NCBI GenBank assembly: GCA_031260805.1
Contig: JAISKV010000004.1
Location: 4,227-68,226, forward strand
DNA length: 64,000 nucleotides
Direction: 5' to 3'
Origin: Rickettsiales bacterium
Lineage (GTDB): Bacteria > Pseudomonadota > Alphaproteobacteria > Rs-D84
Below are positions 2,288 through 59,140 of this stretch, in pieces. Made by a program: the position numbers and the translations under genes. Every line of letters starts with the position of its first letter. Position 1 is the stretch's first letter. A model generated the notes under the pieces. It was not told where the DNA came from. It ran no database searches and saw only the letters and a list, made by a program, of their open reading frames with translations.

Positions 2288-2808
2288 CCCCGCACGCCGA
2301 TCAGCGGAAAGTTTTGTATGCCGCGAATCGGCGAATTGCTGCTGTCAATGAACTTGGCGTTCGCCAGTTCCAATTCATATAATCCGGACAGAGTTCTGAA
2401 TAAATTCTGATCGCCTGTCAGCGGCATGCAGAATTCCATGGCCAGTTTTGTCGCGGCGACCCCGATGAAATGACTGGGAAAAAATTCGCAGGATTTTTTC
2501 GCTATGGCGATTATTTTTATATTTTCCGCCGCGGTGAAAATCTCGTTTCCAATTATCTCGAAATTGCTTTCCGAACAAGAAATAATGCGCAGGACATCGG
2601 TCGGAATTGCAAATCCGCCGGATGCGCTGCGCGTCAAATCATATTTCATCGTCGCGAATCTCCAAGGATGCGCGGCGGTCAGATTGTCAATCGTCATGTC
2701 CCACACGGCGGCGGCCAGCATTGCGGCGGCCGAATTCTCATCCAGGGCCGCAATCGGCTTTTCCCCCAGTTTCAGCAAAGCCAGTGAAATTAAGTCAATT
2801 TGCGTCAT
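2284..2808 (-). CDS. Phage tail tubular protein A-like (T7 gp11-like)
   Basis: N-terminus IDLISLALLKLGEKPIAALDEN ... HPWRFA resembles T7 gp11 NDILASIGEPPVSTLEGD ... RGWTFN; gene order capsid, gp11, gp12 as in T7-like podoviruses. Confidence 0.45.
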   Translation of the reverse strand: MTQIDLISLALLKLGEKPIAALDENSAAAMLAAAVWDMTIDNLTAAHPWRFATMKYDLTRSASGGFAIPTDVLRIISCSESNFEIIGNEIFTAAENIKIIAIAKKSCEFFPSHFIGVAATKLAMEFCMPLTGDQNLFRTLSGLYELELANAKFIDSSNSPIRGIQNFPLIGVRG

Positions 2809-2809
2809 G

Positions 2810-3034
2810 TTAAATCCTTTTTATTTTTACGGCTGGCGCGGCGTCTGTTATCTTGAACAGCGCGGTGTCGTCCAAACCGCAGATTATTATTATGTCGCCG
2901 CCGTTCATCAGGCTTTTCATAGTGTTGAAAAATCCGTCGCAGCACAAAGCATCCATTTTGTCATGCGAACTGTAATGCCACAGCGTGAATCCGTTCGCGT
3001 ACGCGATGACGGACAGGTTTTTGTTTTGGAACAT
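2810..3034 (-). CDS. Small hypothetical phage-module protein
   Basis: 74 aa ORF packed between the hairpin and the gp11-like gene. Confidence 0.3.
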   Translation of the reverse strand: MFQNKNLSVIAYANGFTLWHYSSHDKMDALCCDGFFNTMKSLMNGGDIIIICGLDDTALFKITDAAPAVKIKRI

Positions 3035-3044
3035 GCTAAACTCC

Positions 3045-3133
3045 TTGGTTAAGTTTAAGGTTTGAGGTTTGAGGTTTAAGGTTTAAGGTAATTTTGTCAA
3101 TAACCTTAAACCCCAAACCTCAAACCTTAAACC
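3045..3133. terminator. Long near-perfect hairpin (aaggtttaagg / ccttaaacc arms, about 32 bp stem) immediately downstream of the capsid-like gene
   Basis: Inverted repeat seen directly; its position mirrors the T7 T-phi terminator after gene 10; the same aaggttt motif flanks host terminators elsewhere in the window. Confidence 0.5.
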
Positions 3134-3137
3134 TTGT

Positions 3138-3953
3138 TTATTCGCCGCACTTGATTTTAACGATGCCTTCGTTGTCAATCAGAACGCTGCCTTGGCTCAT
3201 GGAATTGCAGACAAAGTGCGAAGCGCGTTCGCCCACCCACGAGATGTCTGTTTTGACATCTTGGCCGACCGCGTGTCCGATTGCGGACGCGTGATACATA
3301 AAGCAGTCGCGCTCGTCATCGTCCACAGGCAATCCGTTGTGCAAAACCCAAATGACGCCCAGCCATTTCTTGGTCTCGAACCCAGACACCAGCGGTGTTT
3401 CGCCGCCGACATATTCCGCGGAAACGAATTCGTCCATGGACAGCAATTCATTCCACTGATGCACACCGACAACGGCGAACCTGCGCCCGTCATCAGGAAT
3501 GTCATTCGCGTTCAGCGATTCAATCGCGGACAAAATTCCGTCCTTGGTCAAACCGTCAGAGTAATCGCCGACAAAGTTGGTGGCGGCCGCCATTGAATTG
3601 ATAATCAATTCATCTGTCTTGCGCCCCAGCGCGTACGCGCCCGCGGACGCAACGACGCGCCGCTCGTCAATGTTGGTTTTGATTTCGTCCAACGCGTCAA
3701 CCCAGTCGCCGGCATAGTAATCCTGCAAGGCGCATTCAACGGATGTGTGCGCCAGATTCATGACGGGAACCAAGTCATGACGGGTTTTCGTGCTGGCGGT
3801 GCCGCGTCCGACTTTTTGGAAAGTCGTGCTGGAACCGACAATGCCGTCTTTGGAACGGATGGTGCTGCGCAGTTTTGTGCCCATCTGCTGGTATGCGAGA
3901 TGAACATCGGCCTCGAACTGCTTGACAAAGGCCTGGTTTATGCTTGTTGACAT
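3138..3953 (-). CDS. Putative phage major capsid protein
   Basis: 271 aa ORF at the capsid position, upstream of the gp11-like and gp12-like genes; no strong motif, so this is a positional call. Confidence 0.4.
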   Translation of the reverse strand: MSTSINQAFVKQFEADVHLAYQQMGTKLRSTIRSKDGIVGSSTTFQKVGRGTASTKTRHDLVPVMNLAHTSVECALQDYYAGDWVDALDEIKTNIDERRVVASAGAYALGRKTDELIINSMAAATNFVGDYSDGLTKDGILSAIESLNANDIPDDGRRFAVVGVHQWNELLSMDEFVSAEYVGGETPLVSGFETKKWLGVIWVLHNGLPVDDDERDCFMYHASAIGHAVGQDVKTDISWVGERASHFVCNSMSQGSVLIDNEGIVKIKCGE

Positions 3954-4106
3954 TATATTTTCCTTTGGTTGTAAAAAAACTTCGCGTATGCGAAGTCTGA
4001 TTGATTTGATTGTCCGTTATGCGTTGCCGCGCGGATTCTCAAATATCGCGGGTCCCAAAGATTTTCCGCAAATAGAAATGCAAAAAAATCGCCCGAAGGC
4101 GATTTT

Positions 4107-4373
4107 TTATTTTTTAACGACTTTTTTTGCCGCCGGTTTTTTCGCAACAACTTTCTTTGTGACCGGTTTTTTCACCGCGACTTTTTTCACCGCCGGTTTT
4201 TTCGCAACAACTTTCTTTGCGACCGGTTTTTTCACCGCGACTTTTTTCGCCGCCGGTTTTTTGGCGACAACTTTTTTCGCAGCCGGCTTTTTCGCGGCGA
4301 CTTTCTTTACTGCCGGTTTAGCAGCCGGTTTCGCGGCGGCTTTGACAACAGGTTTTTTTCCAAACAATGCCAT
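4107..4373 (-). CDS. Lys/Ala-rich basic repeat protein (histone H1-like), encoded by about 60 bp tandem DNA repeats
   Basis: AAKKPAAKKVVAKKP periodic repeats; tandem nucleotide repeats at 4121-4300; the plus-strand ORF 3922-4446 is its antisense artefact. Confidence 0.5.
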   Translation of the reverse strand: MALFGKKPVVKAAAKPAAKPAVKKVAAKKPAAKKVVAKKPAAKKVAVKKPVAKKVVAKKPAVKKVAVKKPVTKKVVAKKPAAKKVVKK

Positions 4374-4496
4374 TTTTCTCTCCTTTCAGGACTTAGTCAT
4401 TAGAAACAAATTTTATTGTTCCTTAACCACATTGTATCTGAAATAAAATTCGCGTGCAAGAGAAAAACATTTTTTGCGAATTATTTTTTATTTTTT

Positions 4497-5096
4497 TCAA
4501 CTGTATAATTTTCTGAAACCAGATTCTATTTTCCGGATGTGTTCGCCGTCGCGGTCGCGCCAGTATTTAGGATCCGCCATCATTTTTCGCAACGCCGCGT
4601 CATTCAGGGATTCCGCGGTGTTGGATGCGGTTTCAATTTTCGGTTCGGACGATCGCATCATCGCGAACACGGACTTGATTCCTTCCGCAGACCGCGACAA
4701 GTTTTCATACACATCGCCCGGCAGAAATTTTTCGCCGAAAGAATTTATTTCGCGCATCGCGTCATTCATTTTGTCTTCGCCGCCGAAAAATTTCTTTAAC
4801 TCTGCAAAATTTTCCGATTCGTATTGCGTTGAAAAAATGTTTTCCAGAACCGGCTGCAAAAATTCGTTCGCGATTTCATAAATTTTTTCCGCCTGGGCGC
4901 GGGACAGCCCCGCGTCCTTAAAGCGCTGCTTTAACTCTGCCGATGAAAACAGTTCGTGTTCCGGGTACTCGTTCGGGTCTTCGGGAATGTCGGCCGTTCT
5001 GGCCCCCAGTTTTTTTTCCAATTCGGCATAAGATTTAATCAGCATTTCATTGTTCAGCGAGCCGTCTTCATTCTGAAACTTTTTTGGGACTTCCAT
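4497..5096 (-). CDS. Acidic helical hypothetical protein (scaffold-like)
   Basis: 199 aa acidic, helical composition; sits upstream of the capsid-like gene as in T7 gene 9. Confidence 0.4.
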   Translation of the reverse strand: MEVPKKFQNEDGSLNNEMLIKSYAELEKKLGARTADIPEDPNEYPEHELFSSAELKQRFKDAGLSRAQAEKIYEIANEFLQPVLENIFSTQYESENFAELKKFFGGEDKMNDAMREINSFGEKFLPGDVYENLSRSAEGIKSVFAMMRSSEPKIETASNTAESLNDAALRKMMADPKYWRDRDGEHIRKIESGFRKLYS

Positions 5097-5292
5097 TTTT
5101 TCTCCTTTTGTTATCCATGCCGCGGCGCAGGAAATAAATCCCGGCCAGCGGATAAATTGCGTTCAGCATCTCGAATATGTTTTGCAATCCGGTTAGGTAC
5201 GCGCCGACGGCCGTCAAAATGCCGATGCCGGAAATTATAAAAGTGCGATGCCCGGCCAGCGCGCCGCCGGAAATTATCTGCTTTAATTTCAT
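5068..5292 (-). CDS. Small membrane protein (holin-like: hydrophobic segments plus a charged C-terminal tail)
   Basis: Start moved to MKLKQ so it abuts the stop of the upstream gene; hydrophobic segments and a basic tail. Confidence 0.35.
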   Translation of the reverse strand: MKLKQIISGGALAGHRTFIISGIGILTAVGAYLTGLQNIFEMLNAIYPLAGIYFLRRGMDNKRRKNGSPKKVSE

Positions 5293-5296
5293 AGAA

Positions 5297-5692
5297 TCAT
5301 CCTTTGTAGAATAAAAAATCGCCGACTTCGGCGATGTATCCAATATTGTAAGCCCAACTGGGGTTTTCGTTCTGGCGATGAAACCGCACCGCGCCGTTCA
5401 CACGATCGGGCAGTAGTTTTTTAAGCGATGCCTTTGCAACGCGCGTCGCCATTTTGATTTCCGGTGAATCGGAATCGGCGTACGCGAATCCGACCGGTGC
5501 GAACATGGGAATGATTTCTTCCCAGTCGCGGTCGTACTGTTCGCACAGATTATTTAACGCTGATGCGACGGCCTCGCATTCGGCCAGGGTCCTGGTCGCG
5601 CCCAGCGCGTTCAGTATCCGCGCTATCTTTGCGGCGGTTATGTCAAATTCGCTTTCATTTTCATAAACGGTCAGTTCCATTGGCGGCTCCAT
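5297..5692 (-). CDS. Hypothetical protein
   Basis: Start trimmed to MEPPMEL to avoid overlap with the divergent gene at 5808. Confidence 0.4.
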   Translation of the reverse strand: MEPPMELTVYENESEFDITAAKIARILNALGATRTLAECEAVASALNNLCEQYDRDWEEIIPMFAPVGFAYADSDSPEIKMATRVAKASLKKLLPDRVNGAVRFHRQNENPSWAYNIGYIAEVGDFLFYKG

Positions 5693-5807
5693 AAAAAAAA
5701 GCCGCGAATGCGGCGTAAAAAAAACGCGCCTTGCGCGCATCGTTGTTAAAAGCAGTATATCATAAAATGGCATTAAAATCAAGTCAAAAATATGATATAA
5801 TTGTATC

Positions 5808-8327
5808 GTGCTGAAAAATATACTCTGCGGTTTGCTGGTCGGAACCATGCTGTTCCAAAATATTTCATTCGCTGCGACGAACGCGCGCCGCGGGATTTCA
5901 GCGCCGGTCAGCGGGCCCAAGATTGTCGCGCGCGCGGCGGCAACCGCTTCCGTCGCGGGGGACGGGCAAAAGATACAGGTTGCGAAAACAAACTCGCTGG
6001 CGCCCCAAGAATGCCAGGATTATTGGTTCGGATGCATGGACGGATTCTGCATGTCTGATTCCGACAATGGCGGCCGCTGCATGTGCGGCGCGGATAAAGT
6101 CAAACTGGATGCGGAACTGCAAGGCATCAAAAATCAGATAAATGACAACGCGAATGCCGCATTGATTGCCAGCGACACCATAGCGGCCGGCGCAAATGCG
6201 GAAATCGTAAATTCCGGAACCGTGCGCCAGAATCGCGCCGCGGTCAAGGCGGCCGCCGCGTTGCGGACTTCGTCAAATGACGATGACATTTCCAGCATGA
6301 CCGGCATCCGGCGCCAGAACGCCGCCACGGAAATCTGCATGGAAAATCTGCCCGTCAATTGCGCGGATTCAATAACGATGACGAAAAGCCTGTATGCGAC
6401 GCAAATAGCGTCCGACTGCGGCGCGTATAAAAATTTCGTCGCGTCGCAGAATTTGGCGCTGCGCGATTCCAACTATGAAAAAGACAAAACGATTCGTGCC
6501 GCCGCGATGAAGAGTTTCGAGGATTCCAACAAATACACCCTGGGCGAATGCACGACTGAATTTATCAAGTGCATGCACACGCCGGACGCGTGCGGCGAAA
6601 ATTTGTGGGGCTGCATTTATCCTGACGAAAACGCGATGCAGACCGTCCTGCAAAGCAAAAAGTTGGTCTGCGATCACATAACAGCCAACTGTGTTCAATT
6701 CCGCGACGAAGTATGGCCGGCGGCGATGGCGGCGATGCGGGATGAATTTATCTTTGCGGCCCAGGCCAAGACCAGCGACGAATTGCAAAACTGCGGCGGC
6801 GAAATTGAAAAGTGCATACTGACGGCGTGCAATGAAAAAATCAACGGCGCGGACGCGAACGCATGCCTGGCGCGGCCGGAAATGGTGGAATCGTTTTGCA
6901 GGCCGCAGATAGAAAGATGCAACACGATAAACCCGCAGATTTACGAGTACAAACTGGCGGAATTGCAAGGCATGCGCAAAGATGCCTGTATGAAGGAATT
7001 TCAAGACTGCCTGTTGTCCGACAATGCCTGCGGCGAAAACATGTCCAATTGCATCGGGCTGGATCGTCCGCATATCCAGAAAATGTGCCCGCCGGAAAAG
7101 TTAGTAATTTGCAAAGGGTCAAATCCGAACTTTTCAATAAGCGACATAGACGACATGATAAACGGGATTTATCTGACGGCTGATAACGAAATGTGGAAAC
7201 TGTGCAGCAAAACAATCCAAGATAAAATGACTGAATTGTGCGGCGCGACGACCAGTTGCAATTACTTTGCGAGCACGGCGATTGGCAAAGACAATGTGAA
7301 TTATCAAAAAGTGAAAGACCAGCACTTGCTGACCGGAATGATAAATTGGGAAAGCGTTCCCGTGGTTGATGGAAAGATAGATACCGACGCGTACATCAAG
7401 ATGGTGCGCGGGATTGGCGATACAAAAAACACTGCGGATTCCGAAGCGGTGCTGGCCGGCATCCGCACGGGGCTGGACGATGCCCAGGGCTATGCGGACC
7501 GCGTGATAAATCTGTTGACCGCGGATCCGGGCGTCAGCGCCTGCATCAATGGGCGCGACATGTCCCAGGTGTCCGGTCGCAACAGCAAAATAGAAGGCCG
7601 CTTTCCAAATATTGCCGAGCCGTATAAAAATGTCATAACCCAATCAATATTGAACTATGCGCAGATGAATCAGAATGCCCGCGTTTTGGAATTGACGCAA
7701 AAGGCCAAGGAAGGCAAAAGCGCGGAAGAAATTGAAATGATGTGCCTGCAACTGCCCAGCCTGCTGGAAGGCGGCGCCAAGCAATTCAGCCAGGATCAGA
7801 ACAGCGAATTTATAACTGAAAGCAATTTTGCGACGACAAAGGTTATCGGAACAACGCTCAGTAATGTGCAGATGGCAAAGTTGAAAACGACAAAATTTCA
7901 ATTCACAAAGAACGATGTCATGTCGCGCGAGACATGGGCCGTGTACGAAGCCAGGGATAAAATATGCCATATTTATGGCAAGGATACTTTCTGCGGCAAG
8001 GAATCAACGGTCAAGGCGTATGTGCAGGCTGCGGAAAAGTCGTATGAAGACATCAAGAAAGAAGCGGCGAAAAACCTGAAAAAAGAAAGACTTGGTGAGG
8101 CAGGCGAAGCGGTCGCAATCGGTGCAGGAATCGCGATTGCCGCTGTTGCGGCGAATGCGGCGATTGTCGCGACATTCGGCGCGATTATAACGGTCGGCGC
8201 GTGCGTCCCGATTGTCGGCTGGATTGTGGCGGCGGCGGCGATTATAGTCGGCGCATTGCTGATAATATTCCGTAAAGAAAAAACGCTGTGCGAAACGCGC
8301 GATTGGGATAATCCGGTGCCGTTTTAA
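5808..8327 (+). CDS. Large secreted Cys-rich protein with C-terminal Ala/Gly-rich membrane anchor
   Basis: Signal peptide MLKNILCGLLVGTMLFQNISFA; recurring C..DACGEN..C motifs; hydrophobic C-terminus; antisense ORFs in this span are artefacts. Confidence 0.7.
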   Translation: MLKNILCGLLVGTMLFQNISFAATNARRGISAPVSGPKIVARAAATASVAGDGQKIQVAKTNSLAPQECQDYWFGCMDGFCMSDSDNGGRCMCGADKVKLDAELQGIKNQINDNANAALIASDTIAAGANAEIVNSGTVRQNRAAVKAAAALRTSSNDDDISSMTGIRRQNAATEICMENLPVNCADSITMTKSLYATQIASDCGAYKNFVASQNLALRDSNYEKDKTIRAAAMKSFEDSNKYTLGECTTEFIKCMHTPDACGENLWGCIYPDENAMQTVLQSKKLVCDHITANCVQFRDEVWPAAMAAMRDEFIFAAQAKTSDELQNCGGEIEKCILTACNEKINGADANACLARPEMVESFCRPQIERCNTINPQIYEYKLAELQGMRKDACMKEFQDCLLSDNACGENMSNCIGLDRPHIQKMCPPEKLVICKGSNPNFSISDIDDMINGIYLTADNEMWKLCSKTIQDKMTELCGATTSCNYFASTAIGKDNVNYQKVKDQHLLTGMINWESVPVVDGKIDTDAYIKMVRGIGDTKNTADSEAVLAGIRTGLDDAQGYADRVINLLTADPGVSACINGRDMSQVSGRNSKIEGRFPNIAEPYKNVITQSILNYAQMNQNARVLELTQKAKEGKSAEEIEMMCLQLPSLLEGGAKQFSQDQNSEFITESNFATTKVIGTTLSNVQMAKLKTTKFQFTKNDVMSRETWAVYEARDKICHIYGKDTFCGKESTVKAYVQAAEKSYEDIKKEAAKNLKKERLGEAGEAVAIGAGIAIAAVAANAAIVATFGAIITVGACVPIVGWIVAAAAIIVGALLIIFRKEKTLCETRDWDNPVPF

Positions 8328-12037: not shown

Positions 12038-12212
12038 CCACTACCCCGTCTGCCTGCGGCGTCCACCCCTTCGCTTGGCGAAGGGGATTTACTTGGCCTG
12101 TACCATACAATAAAACAACACTTATTGAAACGAAGTCGGGATAATTCCCCTTCGCCAAGCGAAGGGGTGGCATCACGCCGAAGCGAAGCGTAGGCGGATG
12201 ACGGGGTAGTGG
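12038..12212. repeat. Palindromic repeat element, family A (ccactaccccgtc ... gacggggtagtgg with ccccttcgctggcgaagggg hairpins)
   Basis: Terminal inverted repeats; other copies at 32178-32312, 35757-35893, 46630-46828, 62516-62665, partial at 32497-32560. Confidence 0.7.
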
Positions 12213-15773: not shown

Positions 15774-16340
15774 TTAAAATTTTATGCTGATACTGGTATC
15801 AAGCGCGATTGCAGAACCGATTATATCAATATCAAATCCGTAGATTTTTGTTGACGAAGAAAATCCGCTGTATGACAATCCAACTTTAATGTTGGATGTA
15901 TCGGTCAAGTTATATTGGACCCCGGCGCCAATCCCATAAGAGAATCCTGTTGCAGAAATTTCTTCACCATAAACATCAGCATCTATGTTGATAGATGCTA
16001 TTCCGATATTTGTTGAAATATATGGGGTAAATTGAGTATCCATCAGCGCGTATGTCCAGCCGATATCAAATTCATTTATTGAAGTTGTATCGTCTGTTTC
16101 GCGCGCAAAAAAAACGCCGCCCATCATTTTATTATTCCCGTACCCTAATGCAAATCCTCCGTAATTGTTAAATCCGCCGCTTGTGTTTTTAGCGATATTT
16201 ACCCCTTCAATTGACATTTTTATGTCAGTTGAACTGAGAACATTCGCACCAGTTGAGACTATGAACCCGTAATCATTGGCGGCATTTGCCGCGCCTGCCG
16301 CAATCATTGCCCCAAAAGACATTAACATAACTTTATTCAT
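15774..16340 (-). CDS. Small outer membrane beta-barrel protein
   Basis: Signal peptide; alternating amphipathic beta strands; C-terminal F. Confidence 0.6.
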   Translation of the reverse strand: MNKVMLMSFGAMIAAGAANAANDYGFIVSTGANVLSSTDIKMSIEGVNIAKNTSGGFNNYGGFALGYGNNKMMGGVFFARETDDTTSINEFDIGWTYALMDTQFTPYISTNIGIASINIDADVYGEEISATGFSYGIGAGVQYNLTDTSNIKVGLSYSGFSSSTKIYGFDIDIIGSAIALDTSISIKF

Positions 16341-28153: not shown

Positions 28154-28774
28154 TTATAAATCCCTTATGTCTAAAATATTTTCTTTTTGTATTTTATTGC
28201 AGCCGCCGCGCAATTGCAACAAATCATAAATCTCATCAACCGACTTGTTCACGGCGTATATTTTTAATCCGTATTTCAATACCAAATCGGAAATAGAAAT
28301 TGACTGGGTGCTGCGCACCGTATTGCCGGCCTTGAACCATTTTACTTTATCTTCCAGAAATTTGCCAATTTCTTTATTCCGCCCATAAACAATGAACAGC
28401 AATTCCGATGCCGCGCGCCATACTGACAAAGCCAGATAAATATTATCCTGCTTGAATACATCCGCCTTTTCCAGATTGGTATCATTGAATGTCGCCTGCC
28501 AGGATCGGGCGTCAAAACTGGCGGTTTTCACCTCTAAATAATCAAATCCGCTTTTGGATGCGCGCCGCGCGTCAAATCCATGCTTTTCAGTGTTCACATG
28601 GGTGTAATTCAGATATTTTGCGGCGATTGAATCGCGCACTTCATTTATGAAAGTATCTGTGTCCAGTTTGTCGTATTCGGTTTGTATTTTAGTCAGCGAT
28701 TGAAAAACATCCAAACTGCGCGATAGAAACACTTCATCTATTTTCTGAAAATTGCCTTTGTCCAGTAATTTCAT
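28154..28774 (-). CDS. Type II restriction endonuclease (PD-(D/E)xK)
   Basis: FDYLEVK catalytic motif; start ATG overlaps the methyltransferase stop (ATGA); the longer ORF extension to 28942 is rejected. Confidence 0.55.
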   Translation of the reverse strand: MKLLDKGNFQKIDEVFLSRSLDVFQSLTKIQTEYDKLDTDTFINEVRDSIAAKYLNYTHVNTEKHGFDARRASKSGFDYLEVKTASFDARSWQATFNDTNLEKADVFKQDNIYLALSVWRAASELLFIVYGRNKEIGKFLEDKVKWFKAGNTVRSTQSISISDLVLKYGLKIYAVNKSVDEIYDLLQLRGGCNKIQKENILDIRDL

Positions 28775-29649
28775 AATAAAGTCCCCGCCATATAATTCTT
28801 GACATTCTCGTTCGCCATTAGAACATAATCCGGATTGATTTCGAATGCTATATAATTTCCGCCGTTTTTCAGAACTGATATGCACTCGCTGCCGCTGCCG
28901 CAAAACGGGATGACGACATTGAAAGGAATGACGGGCTTGCACGATTTTATCAATTTGTCGGTCAATTCCAAGGGCTTCTGGGTAGGATGGATTATGATGT
29001 CATGCCCGTAATGCTCTTTGCGTTTTGACGGCGCGATAATTTTCCCGCAATCTTTGCAATACATGATGCGTTCTTTCAATGCCGCGCCGCCGGCCAGCGT
29101 TGACTGGCAGATTACATCCCGCGGCAGCGCGCCGCGCTCGTCCGCATTATAAAGTGTTTCGACGCCGCCGTCTTTGGCAAAACGGCCGTGCCCCGCCGGG
29201 CGAACCCTGCCGGCGCTGCCGCGCAAAAATCCATCCGTGTACGGTTCGCGCACTTCATCGCGATTGAATAGCGGCTTGCTGCGCCAATAGCAGATTATTG
29301 ATTCGTGGCTGCGCTGCCAAAAATTCAACGACGGGACATTTTTATTCGTATAATACCAAATCAGCCACCGTTGCTGGTCGATCGGCAGCAGTACGGAAAT
29401 ATGCGCCAGAATTTCATCAAATCCGTAAATGAACATGGTGCCGGTCGGCTTTAATATCCGAATGCATTCGCCCAGCCAGGATTTCACCCATTCTATATAA
29501 TCAGCATTGTTTCGTTTGTCTGAATCATTGCCAAAGTCTTTGCCAATATTATACGGTGGATCAGCGATAATTATATCTGCAAAAGCATCAGGCAGTTCTT
29601 TCATGCCGGCGACGCAGTCTTGCAAGATTATGCGGTTCTGATTATCCAT
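28771..29649 (-). CDS. DNA methyltransferase (N6-adenine or N4-cytosine, beta class)
   Basis: Motif IV DPPY precedes motif I FCGSGSE. Confidence 0.75.
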   Translation of the reverse strand: MDNQNRIILQDCVAGMKELPDAFADIIIADPPYNIGKDFGNDSDKRNNADYIEWVKSWLGECIRILKPTGTMFIYGFDEILAHISVLLPIDQQRWLIWYYTNKNVPSLNFWQRSHESIICYWRSKPLFNRDEVREPYTDGFLRGSAGRVRPAGHGRFAKDGGVETLYNADERGALPRDVICQSTLAGGAALKERIMYCKDCGKIIAPSKRKEHYGHDIIIHPTQKPLELTDKLIKSCKPVIPFNVVIPFCGSGSECISVLKNGGNYIAFEINPDYVLMANENVKNYMAGTLL

Positions 29650-32692: not shown

Positions 32693-35263
32693 ATGATAAA
32701 AATTGCACGATTTTTGGCGTTTGCTTTGTCTGTATTTTATGGCGTTGGTGCGGTTGCCGATACGACATTGTCGGGCAGCGGCACCGGCAGCGCAAATATC
32801 AGCGAATCAGGAAATGTTTATTTGCAAGATTACACCCTTAACGCGGACAGCATCAGCGCGGGCATAAACATTGAATCTGTATCCGGGAAAAAGTTCGTTG
32901 TAAATCCAGATTTTGTCAATAATCCGGAAATGACCGCAACAAATGCCGTCATTATCGCCGATGGAATTTTTATGGGGAATGCCGGCGTCGGATCTGAATC
33001 AATTCATATAAATTCCGGTGCGGCCGGCAATATCTTTACCATAACGGGCGACACTATTGAAATAGACGGATTTGTTAATGCCGCGTTGGGGACGCTGGTT
33101 CTGAATGGACTGAACGGCATTAATATTGCCGGTGATATCCTGGGGAATGTCAATGGATACGCGTCTGATATAATTATTGGCGGTGGCGTTGACGGGGATA
33201 TAGATTTTAACCTGACCGGCGGAATGGAACTGGGCGGCGCGTCGCTGGCGCCGGGTTCGGTTGGCTCTTTTGCAGACTGGCGGGATAAATTTATATCTGG
33301 CGGCGGCGATGATGATTTGCGCGGCGGCGGCGCGATTGATGCGGTCGGCGATATTGTTATTGACAATAATATTGACGGGGACTTTGATATTTTCACCCTG
33401 GGGGATTTGTGGGTCGGCGGCAATCTGAACAACTTTTTTGATATAAATGCGGACAATGTTTATATTATCGGCGATGTAAACGGCGACGGTGTTATAAATG
33501 CCGATGATGATATTTACATTGGCGGAAATCTGGGCGGCAATGTGGATATGAACGCCGATGACATTTATGTCGGCGGCGATATCGTCGCAGGCGCGAAAAT
33601 TCGTCCAAATCTGCCGAATGGGCCTGGTTCTGATGCTTTGGGAAATTTTCATATGAGCCCCAGCGGCAATCCGGCGGATCCGTTCAAGACGCTGAATCTG
33701 CATATTGACGGGACTTATTATTTTGGAAACGATTCGTATCTGCAATTGGTCTTGAATCAAGATGTAGCGGATGCGGATGGGAACAGCGCGTATAATCCGG
33801 ATACTGATCGGGCTCTGCTGGAAGTAAGGAATTTTGTATCCCAAGTCAGTGTCAGTCCGAATTTTGTAGACATGAATACGACGCCGAATTTGGAAATCTT
33901 GGTTGACGGTCTGGGCCAGCAAAAGAAAATCTGGGTTATTCATGCGGATAACGCGATTGCAGGACTCGGCGACCTGGATGTTGCCGGCGTATGGTTTTAT
34001 GATGCCGCCCGTACCGAGCGGTTGTTCCAGGAAGCGGCCTTGATTTTAGAGAACGGCGATCATGATATCATGGCGATACTGGCGACAATGCGTCGGATGA
34101 AGGTTCTGGCGCTGAATGCGGCCGCCCATACCGGAAACGATGTCGCGATGGCGTCCGCAATGGATGACTTGATTGAATTGCGGTTGCGCGCTTACAATGG
34201 GTCTTCGGATATAGAGGATAATTTGACGAATATCATGGGATCGCTGTTCGGCAAAAGCGATGTGTATTACAAAATGATGGTTGCCGGCGGGTATCATGAT
34301 GACGCGGTTGATGTCATGGTGGCGAATATCGCAGGCAATGAAACGCCGGCCAGTTATGCGCGCGCGTTAAAGTATATCCGCGGATTCGGATTGGATTCAT
34401 CGGTTGGCTTGATAAAAAATATGGCTGTCGTTGCAACGCAGATGCGCGGCGCGGCGGTTGCGCAGTTGTTTAACGAATATACTTGGAACCGCTGGCGAGA
34501 TCCGCGCGGATTGTGGCTGAATTTTAATTCGTCCGGATTGGGCGATGACGATTATCTGTCGCTGAACGGCGGATTTGATTGGCAGTTCAACAAGAAGATA
34601 CTGGCCGGAATTAATTTCGGATACGCCGCCGGCGATGTATCAGAAATATTTGATTTCGGATTGTACGGAACATATCGGGTTAACAGCAAGATCAGGGCGT
34701 ACGCCAGTCTGAATCTGCTGTTTAATTCAGGAAAACTTGCCAGCGAAAATAAACTGATGGGCGAATTAAAGTCCGATTTCGGCGGCACCGATGTGTTCGT
34801 TGATGCTGGTATCATACATAATATTTTCAGCCCGTATATCAATGGGCGCGCTTCATTGGTCATCGGGAACCGCGGGGCGTTGGATTTGTCAAATCATATT
34901 TCCGACGGCCGCAACTTTATGGATATAAAATCGGACGGGGCGTTTGTGTTCGCGCCTGGATATGAAATAATGGTCGGCCGCGATGTGTGGCTGAATGTCA
35001 ATTCTTACATTCGTCCGATGGCAAAGTTTGGATTGGAATACAATCTGGCGGCGGGCGACGAACACTTGCGGTTCAAGTTCAGCGACGCGGGCAAATGGTA
35101 TAATTGGAATTACAGTTCGGATCCGCTGTGGGTGAAATACTCAATCGGAATTGATTACGCGCATTACGCACTGCGCACGACATTCAACTTGTCATACGAA
35201 GTTATCAAGAACGACAATATGAAAATGAACAACATAAAATTCGGCGGCACGGCACGATTTTAA
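32693..35263 (+). CDS. Autotransporter-like outer membrane protein (beta-helical Gly/Asp/Asn repeat passenger, C-terminal beta-barrel)
   Basis: Signal peptide; GD..I.GN repeat passenger; C-terminal alternating beta strands ending in F. Confidence 0.5.
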   Translation: MIKIARFLAFALSVFYGVGAVADTTLSGSGTGSANISESGNVYLQDYTLNADSISAGINIESVSGKKFVVNPDFVNNPEMTATNAVIIADGIFMGNAGVGSESIHINSGAAGNIFTITGDTIEIDGFVNAALGTLVLNGLNGINIAGDILGNVNGYASDIIIGGGVDGDIDFNLTGGMELGGASLAPGSVGSFADWRDKFISGGGDDDLRGGGAIDAVGDIVIDNNIDGDFDIFTLGDLWVGGNLNNFFDINADNVYIIGDVNGDGVINADDDIYIGGNLGGNVDMNADDIYVGGDIVAGAKIRPNLPNGPGSDALGNFHMSPSGNPADPFKTLNLHIDGTYYFGNDSYLQLVLNQDVADADGNSAYNPDTDRALLEVRNFVSQVSVSPNFVDMNTTPNLEILVDGLGQQKKIWVIHADNAIAGLGDLDVAGVWFYDAARTERLFQEAALILENGDHDIMAILATMRRMKVLALNAAAHTGNDVAMASAMDDLIELRLRAYNGSSDIEDNLTNIMGSLFGKSDVYYKMMVAGGYHDDAVDVMVANIAGNETPASYARALKYIRGFGLDSSVGLIKNMAVVATQMRGAAVAQLFNEYTWNRWRDPRGLWLNFNSSGLGDDDYLSLNGGFDWQFNKKILAGINFGYAAGDVSEIFDFGLYGTYRVNSKIRAYASLNLLFNSGKLASENKLMGELKSDFGGTDVFVDAGIIHNIFSPYINGRASLVIGNRGALDLSNHISDGRNFMDIKSDGAFVFAPGYEIMVGRDVWLNVNSYIRPMAKFGLEYNLAAGDEHLRFKFSDAGKWYNWNYSSDPLWVKYSIGIDYAHYALRTTFNLSYEVIKNDNMKMNNIKFGGTARF

Positions 35264-35288: not shown

Positions 35289-35699
35289 ATGAAGAAAATA
35301 ATATTATTTTCACTTTTCGCTTTTTCCGTTTCACTTTGCGGCTTTGCCGCGGTGGATCCGACGCTGTTGTGCGACGGGTCGCCGAAATGGGATAAATATC
35401 TGGTGAATGAACAGGATGTGAACTTTGCGATAAATGCAACCGGCTGCGGGAACGATTATAAACCGGACAGCGTGTACTCGCAGATACGCGTGCAGTCCGG
35501 CCGGGATGAAACCGTGGCCGGATATGGAACTGGCGCCGGTGGCAATGGTTATGGAAAACAAACACCGGCTGGATACGGCGGATACGGCGGATACGGCGGG
35601 GGATACGGAATCGACGGAATGTACGATAAATACCGTATGGATCCGTCAAAGCCAATGTACGGCCGCCCCGAAGAAGTCGGGATAGTCGTAAAGAAATAA
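35289..35699 (+). CDS. Secreted Gly/Tyr-rich protein
   Basis: Signal peptide MKKIILFSLFAFSVSLCGFAA shared with the OMP family; GYGGYGGYGGGYG tract. Confidence 0.5.
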   Translation: MKKIILFSLFAFSVSLCGFAAVDPTLLCDGSPKWDKYLVNEQDVNFAINATGCGNDYKPDSVYSQIRVQSGRDETVAGYGTGAGGNGYGKQTPAGYGGYGGYGGGYGIDGMYDKYRMDPSKPMYGRPEEVGIVVKK

Positions 35700-35952
35700 A
35701 AAACGCGGCATCGCCGCGTTTTTTTGAGACATGTGAAATGAGATATGAAACATGAACCACTACCCCGTCCGGCTGCGCAGTCCACCCCTTCGCTTAGCGA
35801 AGGGGAGTTGTCCGAACTTCGTTTTAATGTGCAGGCCAACGAATTCCCCTTCGCTGGCGAAGGGGTGGACGCCGCAGGCGGACGGGGTAGTGGTAAAAGA
35901 AGTGAAAAAACATTTGTAAAATTTGGAATGATGATATAATATTGCCGTAAAT

Positions 35953-36029
35953 CGGGGCGTAGTTCAGTCTGGTAGAATGCTTGCATGGGGTGCAAGTGGT
36001 CGTCCGTTCAAATCGGGTCGCCCCGACCA
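35953..36029 (+). tRNA. tRNA-Pro (anticodon GGG)
   Basis: Hand-folded; loop ATGGGGT; CCA encoded. Confidence 0.7.
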
Positions 36030-36172
36030 TCCTTTGCGTTGCCGCACCACATAAAATGTAATTGATTTTTGCATCAATTTATGATACAATTCCAAGCAAG
36101 AAAAGCGGTTTTGCCGCTATTTATTTTGCCCCTTAAAGGGGCTTTTTTATTTACAACAAGAAAGGAAAAATT

Positions 36173-36751
36173 ATGGAACCTATTTATGTGTCGGCTTTCC
36201 CTGGTATTGGGACTAACAGAATGTATGTTGGATCAAACGGAAATATTTATGAAGCCAGTGGCGGAGACCGCGCTTGGCGCAACAATAATCCTGGTAATAT
36301 AGAAGACGGAAAGTTTGCAAGAAACAATGGAGCAATAGGATCTGATGGCAGATTTGCTATATTTCCAGATAGAAATACTGGCTGGAATGCAATGGTAGGG
36401 CTGCTGTCAACGGACGCATACCAAAATCTAACCATTGAAGGTGCAATAAATCGTTATGCTTCACCCAATGAAAACAATGTTAACGACTATCTGAAATCTA
36501 TTGAAAATCAGACTGGTTTCCCACGCATTACCCCTATGAACAATTTATCCAAAGATAATTTATTGAATCTTGCGAAAGCGATGAAAGCGCATGAAGGTAA
36601 TAAGCCTGGCAAGAAACGGCTTGTGCCTAGAAATGAAACATATATCTGGATTACACAAGGTGATGATAAAGTTCGTCCTGAACATGAAGGACTGGACGGG
36701 GAAGAAAGAAGTTGGTATGATAGTCCGCATCTGGGTGAAGAATATGGGTGA
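36173..36751 (+). CDS. Hypothetical protein with C-terminal phage Mu F-like motif (VRPEHEGLDGE)
   Basis: The RPxH..LDG motif resembles the head morphogenesis (SPP1 gp7 / Mu F) family; low-GC context next to tRNA-Pro. Confidence 0.4.
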   Translation: MEPIYVSAFPGIGTNRMYVGSNGNIYEASGGDRAWRNNNPGNIEDGKFARNNGAIGSDGRFAIFPDRNTGWNAMVGLLSTDAYQNLTIEGAINRYASPNENNVNDYLKSIENQTGFPRITPMNNLSKDNLLNLAKAMKAHEGNKPGKKRLVPRNETYIWITQGDDKVRPEHEGLDGEERSWYDSPHLGEEYG

Positions 36752-37280
36752 AGATGCAGTGCAAAATCGGCTTATTAAATATTTTTCAGTTTTACTGTTT
36801 TGTGCATCTTGCGCAAGCAAACCGGTATATATTAATCATGATAATATGGATTATGGATTGCCGAAAGTGCCAGATGAAAAGGAAATTTTTAATATAGAAA
36901 CCGAAAATTGGGATATTTATGGCATTTCAAGCATAGAGACATTTTATATAGATGTAAATAATGATGGCAAAAAAGATAAAATTATCCGCGGGCGTTTCTC
37001 TAACATAAGCGCTCATGGATATGATTTTTATGAAATATACTCTGACAACGGCACAGAAATAGCGAAATTCAGAACTGTTGAGGGTGCGGATTGTTTTCTA
37101 GAAGCCTATAAATTTCAATTTAATCCATTCTTGTTGATAAAAGCATCTCGTCCTTGGCATAAGACTTGGGCCACACCGATGCCTGCAAAAATAGAACGAT
37201 ATCAAATTATTGACGATAAATTGGAAAAAATATCTGAAACTGTCGGCGGAATAATTTGTGATGTCAGAGAATTGCTATAA
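36744..37280 (+). CDS. Lipoprotein
   Basis: LLFCASCAS lipobox; overlaps the upstream gene by 8 nt. Confidence 0.45.
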   Translation: MGEDAVQNRLIKYFSVLLFCASCASKPVYINHDNMDYGLPKVPDEKEIFNIETENWDIYGISSIETFYIDVNNDGKKDKIIRGRFSNISAHGYDFYEIYSDNGTEIAKFRTVEGADCFLEAYKFQFNPFLLIKASRPWHKTWATPMPAKIERYQIIDDKLEKISETVGGIICDVRELL

Positions 37281-37359
37281 TGTATAAAATCCCGACCATA
37301 ATAATTCACATATAAAATAACTGTTGAATCTGGCGGATTTATTTTTTAATATTCAACGC

Positions 37360-38364
37360 ATGGGGATTGTATGGAAATTTTTTCATAATGCCAGATTTCG
37401 CAATATGGCTGTTTGGGTTGCGGCGCCCATAATTTTTAGTATTAATTTTGCATGTGCAGATATTGCCGGCACAGGATATGTTCATGACTTGGCGCAGAGT
37501 TATACCGGGACGCCAATCCCTGTTGTGCCGGCCGGGATTGCCAGCACAAAATACGCGATGGAGTTTGCAGAATCTTACGGCGGCCGCAGCGCGTGTTATT
37601 CAGCCAAGATGTCAAACAATATATTGACTGCAAGAATCGCATCGGTTGATTTCGCAAACAGCGCGTTTCGGCGAAATATCGCGGATTACTGCTATATTGA
37701 TTCAGATAGTCTGATTATGGATATCCGGGCAAATAATGACGGGCGTGAATTGCTGGATATCAGCGGGTATTATAATGACATCACAATGTACAATGGCGCG
37801 GCGGTTGATGTATCTGAAAATGCGGTGAAAATAGACACGCCCGGATACGGGCGCACATCGCGATACATTGACTTGTCCCAGTATTCCAGCATCACGGTAG
37901 AAGTCCGATTCCTGGCGCTGGACCCGACAAAAAGCGGCGACATATTTGAGTCCAGTATAAATTGGAACAATCAATCCGGCGGATTCGGATGCTATTACAA
38001 TCTGAACAGTTCCGTGTATCGGGCGGATATGGTGCACTGCAATCATAACGGAACTGATGTGCTGAACATAACGGTCCCGATAAATACCGGCTCGTCGCAT
38101 ACGATAACCAAGGTTTTATCCAGCAGCGCGGCGACGAATAATCATAAATTGTATTGGGATGGATTATTGATAAATCAGGCGACATCAAACAGACCGCTGC
38201 GGAATGACTATATGTTCTTTGGCTGCCGCGCCGGCGAATCATGCACGCCATTTCTTAATTATTATTCTATAAGAATATACAAGCGCGAGTTAACCGCGGT
38301 GGAAATTTGCGATAACGCCTGGGCGGACTATAACGCATTCGGCGGCGCGGTGCCGAATTGCTAG
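37360..38364 (+). CDS. Secreted hypothetical protein (beta-rich, lectin/jelly-roll-like composition)
   Basis: Signal peptide AVWVAAPIIFSINFACA; no recognisable catalytic motif. Confidence 0.45.
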   Translation: MGIVWKFFHNARFRNMAVWVAAPIIFSINFACADIAGTGYVHDLAQSYTGTPIPVVPAGIASTKYAMEFAESYGGRSACYSAKMSNNILTARIASVDFANSAFRRNIADYCYIDSDSLIMDIRANNDGRELLDISGYYNDITMYNGAAVDVSENAVKIDTPGYGRTSRYIDLSQYSSITVEVRFLALDPTKSGDIFESSINWNNQSGGFGCYYNLNSSVYRADMVHCNHNGTDVLNITVPINTGSSHTITKVLSSSAATNNHKLYWDGLLINQATSNRPLRNDYMFFGCRAGESCTPFLNYYSIRIYKRELTAVEICDNAWADYNAFGGAVPNC

Positions 38365-38588
38365 GCTTTTTTGTTAACTTGCTCGCACATTCTATTGTGT
38401 TTGTAGATATTGCGCGCCAAATCGTCGCTGATAATGTCCCAGTCTGAATCGCGCCCGTAAATCGGATCGCATGTCTGCTTGACCGCGGCGCGCGCGGCCG
38501 GCGCGGATACGGTCTCAGGCCCGGATGGTGTACTTTGCGCGCAGGCGGTCGCGAATATCACGGACGCCAGTATTATAAGTTTCTGCAT
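38361..38588 (-). CDS. Small lipoprotein
   Basis: ILASVIFATACAQ lipobox. Confidence 0.35.
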   Translation of the reverse strand: MQKLIILASVIFATACAQSTPSGPETVSAPAARAAVKQTCDPIYGRDSDWDIISDDLARNIYKHNRMCEQVNKKA

Positions 38589-38954
38589 TTATTGCCCCTT
38601 TGGTATCTATAATTTCTTCGGTTATCGCGATTTGTGTCGCGCCGCTGCTGGCGGCGTTCGCGGCCAGGCATTTGACTTCGCCCACCCGTCCGCCGGACCA
38701 GTAAGCCGCGGCGACCACGGCGGCGACGCCGATCGCCATAAATAAGTAAATTGTCTTCATGATTTTTTTCTTTTTCTGCATGCCGTCATTTTATCATGCC
38801 GGCAATATGATTTTAATAGGAATGATTGCCCAAAAGATTAAAGCCAGGGGTGAATCTTTTGGGGGCAGTTATTAATTATTAGTTGTTAGTTATTATACTT
38901 TTGTTTGTTGTGGCCAGTTTCCCTCCAAGGGAGGGGAACTGCGCGCCGTTTTTT

Positions 38955-58774: not shown

Positions 58775-59140
58775 TTACTCGTTATTCGGACTCGGGACTC
58801 GTGGTTTAATCATGCCACTCAGCATTTGTCCGATGTCATTAGTTTGTTTTATTAAATTACTTGCGATTTCACGATCCATAAACCCCAAGTCTCGCGCAAG
58901 TATTATATGATATTTTAATTCAGATGCAGAACCACGGGATATTCCTATGAATTGAATTCTCTCATTTATCGTTCGTCTTGCGCCGCCTTCCATCAAATTA
59001 GCGTTTATTGATGATGCGGATCTTCGCATCTGCGATACAAGTCCGTATAATTCGCTTCTTGGAAATGACTCGGTTAATTTATAAATGCTTAAAGTTAATG
59101 CATGTGCTTTCTTATAAACATCTAATTCTTCGGTAAACAT
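58775..59140 (-). CDS. Four-helix-bundle protein (23S rRNA intervening-sequence protein family)
   Basis: Family-typical N-terminus LDVYKKAHALTLSIYKLTESFP. Confidence 0.6.
   Translation of the reverse strand: MFTEELDVYKKAHALTLSIYKLTESFPRSELYGLVSQMRRSASSINANLMEGGARRTINERIQFIGISRGSASELKYHIILARDLGFMDREIASNLIKQTNDIGQMLSGMIKPRVPSPNNE

Follow-up and report, generated by a model that had tools for sequence, protein, structure and literature searches.

What kind of genetic unit occupies the AT-rich DNA that directly follows a tRNA-Pro(GGG) gene in Rickettsiales bacterium (Rs-D84; assembly GCA_031260805.1, contig JAISKV010000004.1, positions 4,227-68,226 of the forward strand)? Within this 64,000-nt stretch, hereafter the window, the original prediction had placed a horizontally acquired low-GC islet of about 3 kb, encoding a Mu F-like protein, an overlapping lipoprotein and a third, secreted protein. 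Our analysis resolves a smaller unit, a two-gene cassette of 1.27 kb (about 36031-37290) with its own control region. Its first gene, open reading frame 1 (ORF1), is predicted to encode a cell-wall enzyme of phage type, and its second, ORF2, probably encodes a lipoprotein. We propose, with a probability of roughly 0.55, that this is an effector-immunity cassette belonging to a phage-derived, co-regulated set of genes. The features of the locus are:

35953-36029, + strand: tRNA-Pro(GGG), found with ARAGORN, 54.3 bits with the Rfam tRNA model; left neighbour of the cassette
36022-36030, + strand: left copy of CCCGACCAT, the last 8 tRNA bases plus one more; candidate left junction
36059-36172, + strand: cassette leader with promoter, two hairpins with T-runs and ribosome-binding site; 76.4 bits, E = 2e-9 with covariance model R1 (see below)
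36062-36090, + strand: promoter-like site, TTGATT, 17 nt, TG-n-TACAAT
36104-36118 and 36128-36142, + strand: terminator-like hairpins, each followed by a T-run, located by a scan and by MAFFT and by-eye comparison with relatives
36173-36751, + strand: ORF1, 192 aa
36593-36595, + strand: codon of the putative catalytic residue Glu141, from alignment to Enc34 Glu131
36749-36751, + strand: premature TGA at the first Cys codon of an invariant CxC, from codon comparison with seven relatives
36776-36778, + strand: ancestral TAA, kept; the in-frame remnant before it reads RCSAKSAY
36744-37280, + strand: ORF2, 178 aa, overlapping the end of ORF1
37291-37299, + strand: right copy of CCCGACCAT, starting 11 nt past the ORF2 stop; candidate right junction
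37360-38364, + strand: ORF3, 334 aa

The extent of the unit is set by its composition. Measured in 300-nt intervals, guanine plus cytosine (GC) content is 33-42% across 35950-37450 against a window average of ~50%, and from 37450 to 38945 it is 45-54%, equal to background. At third codon positions (GC3), the 46 remaining ORFs in the window that are 120 aa or longer give 0.579 +/- 0.088, from which ORF1 (0.311, z = -3.0) and ORF2 (0.268, z = -3.5) depart, while ORF3 (0.531, z = -0.5) is ordinary. Because the low GC stops near 37450 and ORF3 is ordinary, the AT-rich islet comprises only ORF1 and ORF2, ~1.3 kb rather than 3 kb. The AT-richness originally described 3' of the tRNA is thus real for 36030-37450 and absent from 37450-38945. 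Likewise, the proposed horizontal acquisition agrees with the foreign composition of ORF1 and ORF2 and their position directly 3' of a tRNA gene; it does not extend to ORF3, whose composition is normal.

Most of ORF1 is a lysozyme-like domain. Residues ~25-145 match the Enc34/PHA02564 type (phrog_873, E = 2e-20, plus other large virion protein families), the N-terminus of Gp29 (PDB 9vvp; E = 1.6e-12 with the single sequence, 1.5e-16 with the family profile) and the Enc34 endolysin (PDB 7q47; likewise matched by the single sequence, E = 4.5e-8 with the family profile). By tblastn the domain occurs in 484 phage records, in features annotated as internal virion protein with endolysin domain, peptidoglycan transglycosylase and endolysin. 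The fold was taken from the AlphaFold model of a full-length homologue 86% identical to ORF1 (P0002; predicted local distance difference test score, pLDDT, 94.7; predicted template modelling score, pTM, 0.87). Its sole significant PDB match by Foldseek is 7q47 (E = 1.6e-5, probability 1.00), and among predicted viral structures (BFVD) its helical part resembles those of virion and internal virion proteins, with E values as low as 7e-10. The PHA02564 domain of the Enc34 ORF39 endolysin is muralytic, an all-helical relative of the lysozyme fold with the catalytic signature Glu131, Trp79 and Tyr95 (PMC8943055). In the HMMER alignment, Enc34 Trp79, Tyr95 and Glu131 correspond to ORF1 Tyr95, Tyr106 and Glu141, position 95 being Tyr and not Trp; across a 44-sequence alignment Glu141 is invariant, and Tyr95 and Tyr106 are kept in at least 90% of sequences. 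On this sequence evidence ORF1 is predicted to be mainly a cell-wall glycosidase of the Enc34/PHA02564 type, its catalytic residues kept. Reading the sequence for an N-terminal hydrophobic segment or signal peptide found neither in ORF1, and the PADLOC defence-system models matched none of ORF1, ORF2 or ORF3.

The remaining C-terminal part of ORF1, residues 149-192, holds a Mu F core motif (VRPEHEGLDG...). Residues 149-185 align with positions 59-95 of the 112-position PF04233 model at 17.3 bits (cut-off 29.6), and TIGR01641 scores 19 (cut-off 39.65); most of the intact ~201-aa homologues carry a precomputed PF04233 match. The last ~50 residues of the P0002 model match minor capsid and head-morphogenesis proteins in BFVD (root-mean-square deviation 1.1-1.3), and hhalign relates ORF1 residues 155-200 to the core of the sister Mu F toxins described below (E = 0.013). 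In one homologue (P0112) the motif is at the N-terminus instead. About 40 ORF1 loci were inspected for portal and terminase genes, and none lies within 6-10 kb. The label of a Mu F-like 192-aa protein therefore holds for the VRPEHEGLDG near the C-terminus, with the reservation that the match is partial and sub-threshold and most of ORF1 is another domain. The further idea that ORF1 is a head-morphogenesis protein has to be given up: it is a lysozyme-like enzyme with a Mu F core of only ~45 residues, which is truncated here.

This truncation is plain from comparison with relatives. The ORF1 family comprises about 90 homologues of ~201 aa, 64-86% identical, from metagenome-assembled genomes labelled Rickettsiales, Alphaproteobacteria or Candidatus Enterousia, and all ~201-aa homologues end ...GEEYGCRCxAExVD. 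Where relatives read GGG TGY AGA TGY ... TAA, the window reads GGG TGA AGA TGC AGT GCA AAA TCG GCT TAT TAA, so that of the Mu F core pattern (W..T..D.rVRp.H..ldG ... P ... CRC) ORF1 has W, VRPEH and LDG but has lost CxC, and the otherwise conserved Pro is Leu. The stop arose by a single C-to-A base change; since the downstream frame and the original stop are preserved, it must be very recent. The two genes overlap in different frames at 36744-36752, and the same base change turns ORF2 residue 3 from Ala to Glu. An independent Logan assembly (L001), with a run accession unlike those of the NCBI and JGI records, has the same truncated sequence. Selenocysteine at the TGA (36749-36751) was considered and rejected: folding of 36740-36810 gives z = -0.33 against shuffled sequences, the window contains no tRNA-Sec, and the lack of a fold resembling a selenocysteine insertion sequence after the TGA makes this reading unlikely.

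ORF2 fits the overlapping lipoprotein of the original prediction. It overlaps ORF1, and across 30 homologues it shows a charged N-terminus, a short hydrophobic stretch and a conserved L-[FL]-C-A-[AS]-C box; Cys172 is invariant and Cys117 present in at least 90% of sequences. This conserved pair suggests a disulfide and hence an extracytoplasmic location. From these sequence features ORF2 is probably a lipoprotein, exported and lipid-anchored to the periplasm. Its structural model (pLDDT 85.7) is all-beta after the signal helix, and the top Foldseek PDB match is CarG (4o7j; probability 1.00, template modelling (TM) scores 0.53/0.59, 138 columns). The Pfam CarG-like model gives 18.3 bits (cut-off 28) and is also sub-threshold in a distant paralogue. 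The modelled fold is a CarG/PliI-like beta-sandwich, common to periplasmic lysozyme inhibitors, and fold, location and linkage together suggest that ORF2 may be the inhibitor, that is the immunity protein, of ORF1. For X-Tfe(XAC2609), a signal-peptide-less lysozyme-like effector of Xanthomonas, the cognate inhibitor is a lipoprotein of PliI/Tsi1 topology (bioRxiv 10.1101/2023.08.28.555164).

In order to follow the pair in relatives, one genome per species was scanned, and the 80 matches kept represent 79 distinct loci. ORF2 comes directly after ORF1 in 36 of the 38 loci with a close ORF1 homologue, in gut Alphaproteobacteria (Candidatus Enterousia and termite-gut relatives). The genes flanking these 38 loci form many small clusters, none present in more than seven loci. 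Annotated neighbours are mostly housekeeping genes (NrdD/NrdG, GyrA, FabI, major facilitator superfamily (MFS) and ATP-binding cassette (ABC) transporters, GNAT, a deaminase), some neighbours have no Pfam match, and one recurrent neighbour family is the Tlde1-domain Mu F toxin family. Normal composition together with universal conservation would have spoken against the original prediction; the composition deviates, yet the pair is near-universal in the clade, at shifting positions. About 10 of 40 loci have a tRNA gene on the same strand no more than 500 nt upstream, far above chance, and six kinds are represented (Glu-TTC, Glu-CTC, His, Arg-TCT, Pro-GGG and Pro-TGG). Across the related loci the GC content of the module is steady at ~0.34-0.48, while that of the flanks spans 0.31-0.51.

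The two genes evolve at different rates. Between the window ORF1 and six relatives there are 0.47-0.56 differences per site at codon position 3 and 0.11-0.23 at positions 1 and 2, and ORF1 is under strong purifying selection, while ORF2 diverges much faster. ORF1 is 82% identical to the Enterousia copies, and three housekeeping proteins are 55-75% identical; such relative rates do not decide whether transfer took place, with ORF1 slowly evolving and synonymous sites saturated. The pairing also persists in distant paralogues; in one case an ORF2-like gene follows the gene of a 347-aa protein that has two membrane helices and, at its C-terminus, a PHA02564 domain. Similar paralogous pairs, a ~340-aa two-helix protein with a C-terminal PHA02564 domain and then an ORF2-like protein, adjoin RadC and methionine aminopeptidase in a stable locus (L060 5365-7068; L053 5455-7082; L002 15447-17021, - strand), and in many genomes a second PHA02564 gene lies ~2.8 kb upstream.

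Upstream of ORF1, all close loci share a leader in which a near-consensus promoter (TTGMTT, 17 nt, TGnTATAAT) is followed by a single GC-rich hairpin or by two, each with a T-run, and then by AAAGGAG and the start codon. RNAalifold detects compensatory double changes in 8 of the 12 predicted pairs. A search of the leader region against Rfam returned the tRNA only and no leader family. We therefore describe the leader by a covariance model, R1, built from 18 leaders and searched against ~0.8 Mb of loci plus the window; over all R1 searches about 1.1 Mb was covered. Matches at E <= 0.0025 lie almost only upstream of ORF1, of a family of Mu F toxins and of a phage-like structural operon; the single exception is a solo leader in a repeat after ORF2 in one Enterousia locus (L002), and four weaker matches have E = 0.028-0.094. 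The first hairpin begins just 10-20 nt after the transcription start, which leaves no room for an alternative fold, so the default state is probably termination. With a sigma-70-like promoter and then two intrinsic terminators before the start codon, the cassette would be off or leaky unless termination is overridden, and expression would come through leak or a trans-acting antiterminator.

The second gene family behind this leader (R1 copies in L006, L017, L018, L019, L024 and L025) shares a ~215-residue N-terminal part that includes a Mu F core (...KIWIWHSEHGENTCDEC..DG...VHPNCRCWVEE), with PF04233 found in 4/5 members (best E = 4.1e-7). Its C-terminal ends are varied: three members end in GH108 plus PG_binding_3, one in Phage_lysozyme (E = 3.6e-30) and another in Tlde1/YkuD. 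Behind them come small genes whose products have lipoprotein-type or other signal sequences, and in several genomes the family adjoins the ORF1-ORF2 cassette. By sequence these proteins resemble textbook polymorphic toxins of Mu F type aimed at peptidoglycan; the interchangeable toxin ends are seen in this second family, whereas within the ORF1 family the toxin domain is constant. The third setting of the leader is in the window itself, 30 kb from the cassette, in front of a T7-like structural cluster. The corresponding features are:

L006 3667-4812; L017 3194-4339; L024 266-1417; L025 3677-4873; L019 8714-9880 (- strand): genes of the Mu F toxin family
5678-5785, - strand: second leader copy, with promoter and two terminator hairpins, its sequence read directly; R1 48.4 bits, E = 1.3e-4
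575-5680, - strand: phage-like structural operon behind the second leader, at least six genes, host-like GC
within 575-5680, - strand: first gene of the operon, a 127-aa putative cell-wall hydrolase (weak matches)
within 575-5680, - strand: 74-aa membrane protein with two helices (weak matches)
4497-5096, - strand: T7-type scaffold/capsid assembly protein (PF05396, E = 3.5e-12)
within 575-5680, - strand: H1-like basic protein, between scaffold and major capsid in the gene listing
3138-3953, - strand: major capsid protein (PF19821, E = 1.5e-68)
575-2287, - strand: tail protein of 570 aa (phrog_376, E = 1.3e-74)

The R1 leader stands upstream of the first operon gene in 10/10 loci that include that gene. 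About 50 IMG/VR contigs of gut and rumen samples encode relatives of the capsid protein (73-79% identical), with the gene order unchanged. One related locus (L098) goes on to encode a T7 gp11-like tail protein, a tail-fibre N-terminal domain and a large-terminase fragment of 213 aa, after which comes host DnaB. As the leader is common to the T7-like operon and the Mu F toxins, the cassette would be part of a dispersed, co-regulated, phage-derived set. The phage or toxin-module origin that had been suspected is thus upheld, by the virion-type hydrolase domain with its Mu F core and by this common leader.

How the cassette came to lie next to the tRNA is suggested by its edges. The word CCCGACCAT, present at both candidate junctions, has 4 copies in the window against 0.62 expected, and a shared word of at least 9 nt between the two flanks appears in 4/200 shuffles. 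As a possible attachment site, a longer match to the tRNA 3' end was sought at 22 nt with up to 3 mismatches, and the window has none. Support for site-specific insertion comes only from the 9-nt repeat. The 1.27 kb unit holds only ORF1 and ORF2 and no integrase or recombinase; in the examined flanks of related loci no integrase was seen, the sole recombinase being a resolvase 8 kb away in L002. At the other tRNA-Pro(GGG) locus (L004), a 10-nt piece of its own tRNA follows 16 nt after ORF2. Upstream of that cassette, L004 4887-9493 carries a defence-island-like set comprising a reverse transcriptase, Mrr_N, PAPS reductase/DUF3440 plus ParB_N (IbrAB-like) and helix-turn-helix (HTH) regulators.

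In several Enterousia loci the flanking direct repeats are longer, 110 nt in L002 (9831-9941, 11095-11203) and 123 nt in L017 (1686-1808, 3012-3134). They consist of the upstream intergenic region and at least the promoter start, in L002 the whole promoter. The second copy drives the next gene in L017, and in L002 it faces the end of a convergent gene, as the solo leader mentioned above. An N-terminal coding segment common to the repeat and upstream genes was ruled out, the repeat being intergenic. Recombination at repeated control modules or at conserved tRNA genes would be the most economical account of cassette movement, and in this genome the cassette, by its composition and short flanking repeat, looks acquired next to tRNA-Pro. 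ORF3 and the flanks are without close relatives in databases that could show an empty site.

An effector-immunity function fits these observations because ORF1 has no export signal and carries a Mu F core, its linked partner is fast-evolving and periplasmic, its sisters are toxins and the leader is shared. ORF1 would be made in the cytoplasm, its enzyme domain resembling the N-terminus of ejected podovirus internal virion proteins and fused to a Mu F core. The start of ORF2 inside the end of ORF1 implies that the pair is probably translationally coupled, and ORF2 in the periplasm would shield the producer and its kin by binding to enzymes of ORF1 type and blocking them. Phage-like particles might carry Mu F-tagged cell-wall enzymes, or be released together with them, and the enzymes would act in the periplasm of target cells; in the window copy, loss of CxC from the Mu F core may have uncoupled the enzyme from the particle. 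A wider picture can be drawn more tentatively, and we regard it as doubtful at this stage: Rs-D84 and Enterousia would keep a domesticated podovirus-like particle encoded by the T7-type cluster (no portal seen, a terminase remnant only), whose cargo is not DNA but Mu F-tagged cell-wall-degrading effectors from scattered loci, each with periplasmic lipoprotein immunity. A dedicated antiterminator, acting on the shared leader of promoter and tandem terminators, would switch on all these loci together. In such a system the cassette would be one cargo module, and recombination, both at tRNA genes and at the repeated leader of the cassette, would have carried it between genomes.

Several observations weigh against the effector-immunity reading and its phage-derived origin. 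The pair sits among housekeeping genes in every locus, and IMG/VR viral contigs contain no ORF1 relative above 54% identity. Synonymous sites are near saturation against all sampled relatives, so no donor is identified; the 9-nt flanking repeat is short, and at tRNA-adjacent loci other than L004 the shared words are only 7-8 nt, lie 117-385 nt away or are missing. The lipobox of ORF2 has a non-canonical Cys at position -3 (canonical [LVI][ASTVI][GAS]C). CarG is a carbapenem-resistance protein and not a proven lysozyme inhibitor, PliI-Ah stands lower in the ORF2 Foldseek list with a weak match (probability 0.75, TM 0.32/0.43), and the proposed link between ORF2 and ORF1 is drawn from fold, location and linkage. 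The leader could simply give low constitutive expression, and no antiterminator, Q-like or other, was identified. No portal gene was seen in the structural cluster of the window or of L098, where only the terminase fragment occurs, which leaves the partner that Mu F normally binds unaccounted for. Finally, with its truncated Mu F core and its Pro-to-Leu change, the window copy may be decaying.

The housekeeping neighbours fit a different idea, in which ORF1 is a resident glycosidase for growth, division or assembly of an envelope machine and ORF2 its regulator or anchor, with no function in conflict. The presence of the pair in nearly every sampled species of these genome-reduced gut Alphaproteobacteria (PMC12306168), the strong purifying selection on ORF1 and the paralogous pair with a membrane-anchored enzyme in the stable RadC/methionine aminopeptidase locus all agree with such cell-wall remodelling. 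We consider it unlikely, however, for an enzyme that has no export signal and carries a phage Mu F core, whose position shifts between genomes with enrichment by tRNA genes, whose composition is foreign here, whose leader is common only to phage-like structural genes and polymorphic toxins, and whose partner diverges so much faster than itself. The same Mu F core is unexpected on an endolysin, and it tells against a lysis module in which ORF1 would free particles, ORF2 would be a spanin-like outer-membrane lipoprotein and the leader would provide late expression. ORF2 is moreover a globular beta-sandwich of ~150 residues, unlike the short, proline-rich o-spanins, and lacks a membrane segment at its C-terminus; the pair has no holin gene beside it, a putative hydrolase and a two-helix membrane protein (both weak matches) already open the structural operon, and the sister cassettes behind the same leader are polymorphic toxins with varied ends. 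Lysis thus appears improbable, even though a proven endolysin, Enc34 ORF39, defines the domain family (PMC8943055), the enzyme gene runs at its end into the lipoprotein gene, the structural operon has the same leader and the order of promoter, terminator and genes resembles lambdoid late and lysis operons.

The virion-type enzyme domain, the periplasmic inhibitor-like fold of ORF2 and the tight linkage of the two genes would also suit superinfection exclusion, with ORF1 as a virion-borne entry enzyme and ORF2 blocking the same enzyme from incoming particles or related phages. In phage T4, Spackle blocks the gp5 lysozyme. This explanation, which differs from effector immunity mainly in purpose, seems to us quite unlikely: nothing points to DNA in the particles (a portal gene was not seen, and of the terminase just a fragment), and the sister cassettes look like toxins. 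That the cassette is a decaying phage or island remnant with no present function in this genome would account for the premature stop that removes CxC, the Pro-to-Leu change in the motif, the lack of an integrase and the low GC; it is nevertheless very improbable, as the catalytic domain, ORF2 and the leader are intact and all invariant positions are kept outside the nine-residue truncated tail that contained CxC.

Among described systems, the effector-immunity cassette most invites comparison with the Mu F polymorphic toxins of temperate phages (Jamet et al. 2017, PMC5576092; Zhang et al. 2012, PMC3482391). These likewise combine a Mu F motif and a toxic enzyme with a small putative immunity gene directly downstream, and join one Mu F part to interchangeable ends, as do the sister genes of our relatives. 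Unlike them, the cassette has only a ~45-50-residue Mu F core, C-terminal to the enzyme; its likely target is peptidoglycan, its candidate immunity protein a periplasmic lipoprotein rather than a cytoplasmic protein, and its hosts are Alphaproteobacteria. It also lies outside a prophage and not beside a portal gene, whereas 96% of muf genes are reported to be in prophages or their remnants. With the Enc34 endolysin and with internal virion proteins whose N-terminus is an endolysin domain (SP6, K1-5 and epsilon15 groups; 7q47, 9vvp), ORF1 shares the fold, three signature positions and a ~120-residue domain. It is, however, free-standing at 192/201 aa, with neither the membrane domain of Enc34 nor the >1000-aa ejection body of Gp29, and unlike both it is chromosomal and paired with a lipoprotein.

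The bicistronic arrangement of a signal-less effector with beta-rich lipoprotein immunity is shared with X-Tfe(XAC2609)/X-Tfi(XAC2610) of type IV secretion and with the Tse/Tsi and Tge/Tgi pairs of type VI secretion. X-Tfi carries a lipobox, and its beta-rich fold is akin to those of PliI and Tsi1, while ORF2 resembles CarG more than X-Tfi. In contrast to these pairs, neither secretion genes of type IV or type VI nor recognition domains such as XVIPCD were seen with the cassette, and the putative trafficking tag is a phage Mu F core. ORF2 shares with CarG (4o7j) and PliI the beta-sandwich, the predicted periplasmic location and a DxNxDG-type motif, but it is only 14% identical to CarG and no carbapenem biosynthesis genes lie nearby.

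In control, the parallels are with lambdoid late operons, where a constitutive promoter is followed by an early terminator and Q antitermination, and with gene transfer agents, whose co-regulated loci are dispersed. The cassette system resembles them in having a strong promoter and then terminators before structural and lytic genes, and scattered loci under one control element; it differs in a leader too short for an alternative fold and in structural genes of T7 type, not HK97/RcGTA type. With tRNA-associated islands the cassette shares the tRNA 3'-end site, deviant composition and a short direct repeat. Unlike them it is 1.27 kb long, without an integrase and with a repeat of 9 nt, and elsewhere the repeats are 110-123-nt copies of its own upstream region and promoter.

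Mu F toxins have been described almost only in prophages, mostly of Firmicutes and with cytoplasmic targets, and their delivery has not been shown. In the present case the Mu F core sits on cell-wall enzymes, with periplasmic immunity candidates, outside a prophage and under a control element common to a conserved T7-like cluster. Genomes of this lineage are mostly <1 Mb (PMC12306168), which makes retention of these genes notable and suggests a role in how the uncultured hosts deal with their neighbours. The leader offers a simple way to catalogue, by sequence, all the co-regulated genes of a given genome; together with the T7-like cluster it is the part most worth following up, and the enzyme-inhibitor pair is small enough for direct testing.

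ORF3, which had been counted as the third, secreted member of the islet, does have an N-terminal hydrophobic, signal-like segment, followed by a C-terminal concanavalin A-like (Laminin_G_3) domain (PF13385, E = 0.0019; 20/27 homologues match). Its nearest relatives are 40-49% identical in an exhaustive search, and a word-indexed search returned only ORF3 itself. As a member of the cassette it was rejected for its normal composition (including GC3), its generic domain and the lack of any ORF3 relative near the roughly 80 ORF1-like loci.

Other features of the window were recorded in passing. Between a terminator and tRNA-Pro lies a palindromic inverted-repeat element of ~139 nt (35756-35894), with 38-nt arms that are 92% complementary and inner CCCCTTCGC...GCGAAGGGG hairpins; a related copy is at 12066-12167, and the leader of one relative (L037) holds an inserted element of similar style. 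Just upstream of tRNA-Pro, a 136-aa secreted Gly/Tyr-rich protein (35289-35699, + strand) comes after an 856-aa protein (32693-35263, + strand) with beta-helix-like repeats and a beta-rich C-terminus, autotransporter-like, for which no Pfam model scores above threshold. An 839-aa secreted protein, rich in cysteine and with a membrane segment at its C-terminus, matches no family; its gene (5808-8327, + strand) diverges from the phage-like operon. Further ORFs of low GC3 (0.31-0.43) are on the - strand at 15774-16340, 58775-59140 and 28154-28942, and may be foreign genes or spurious.

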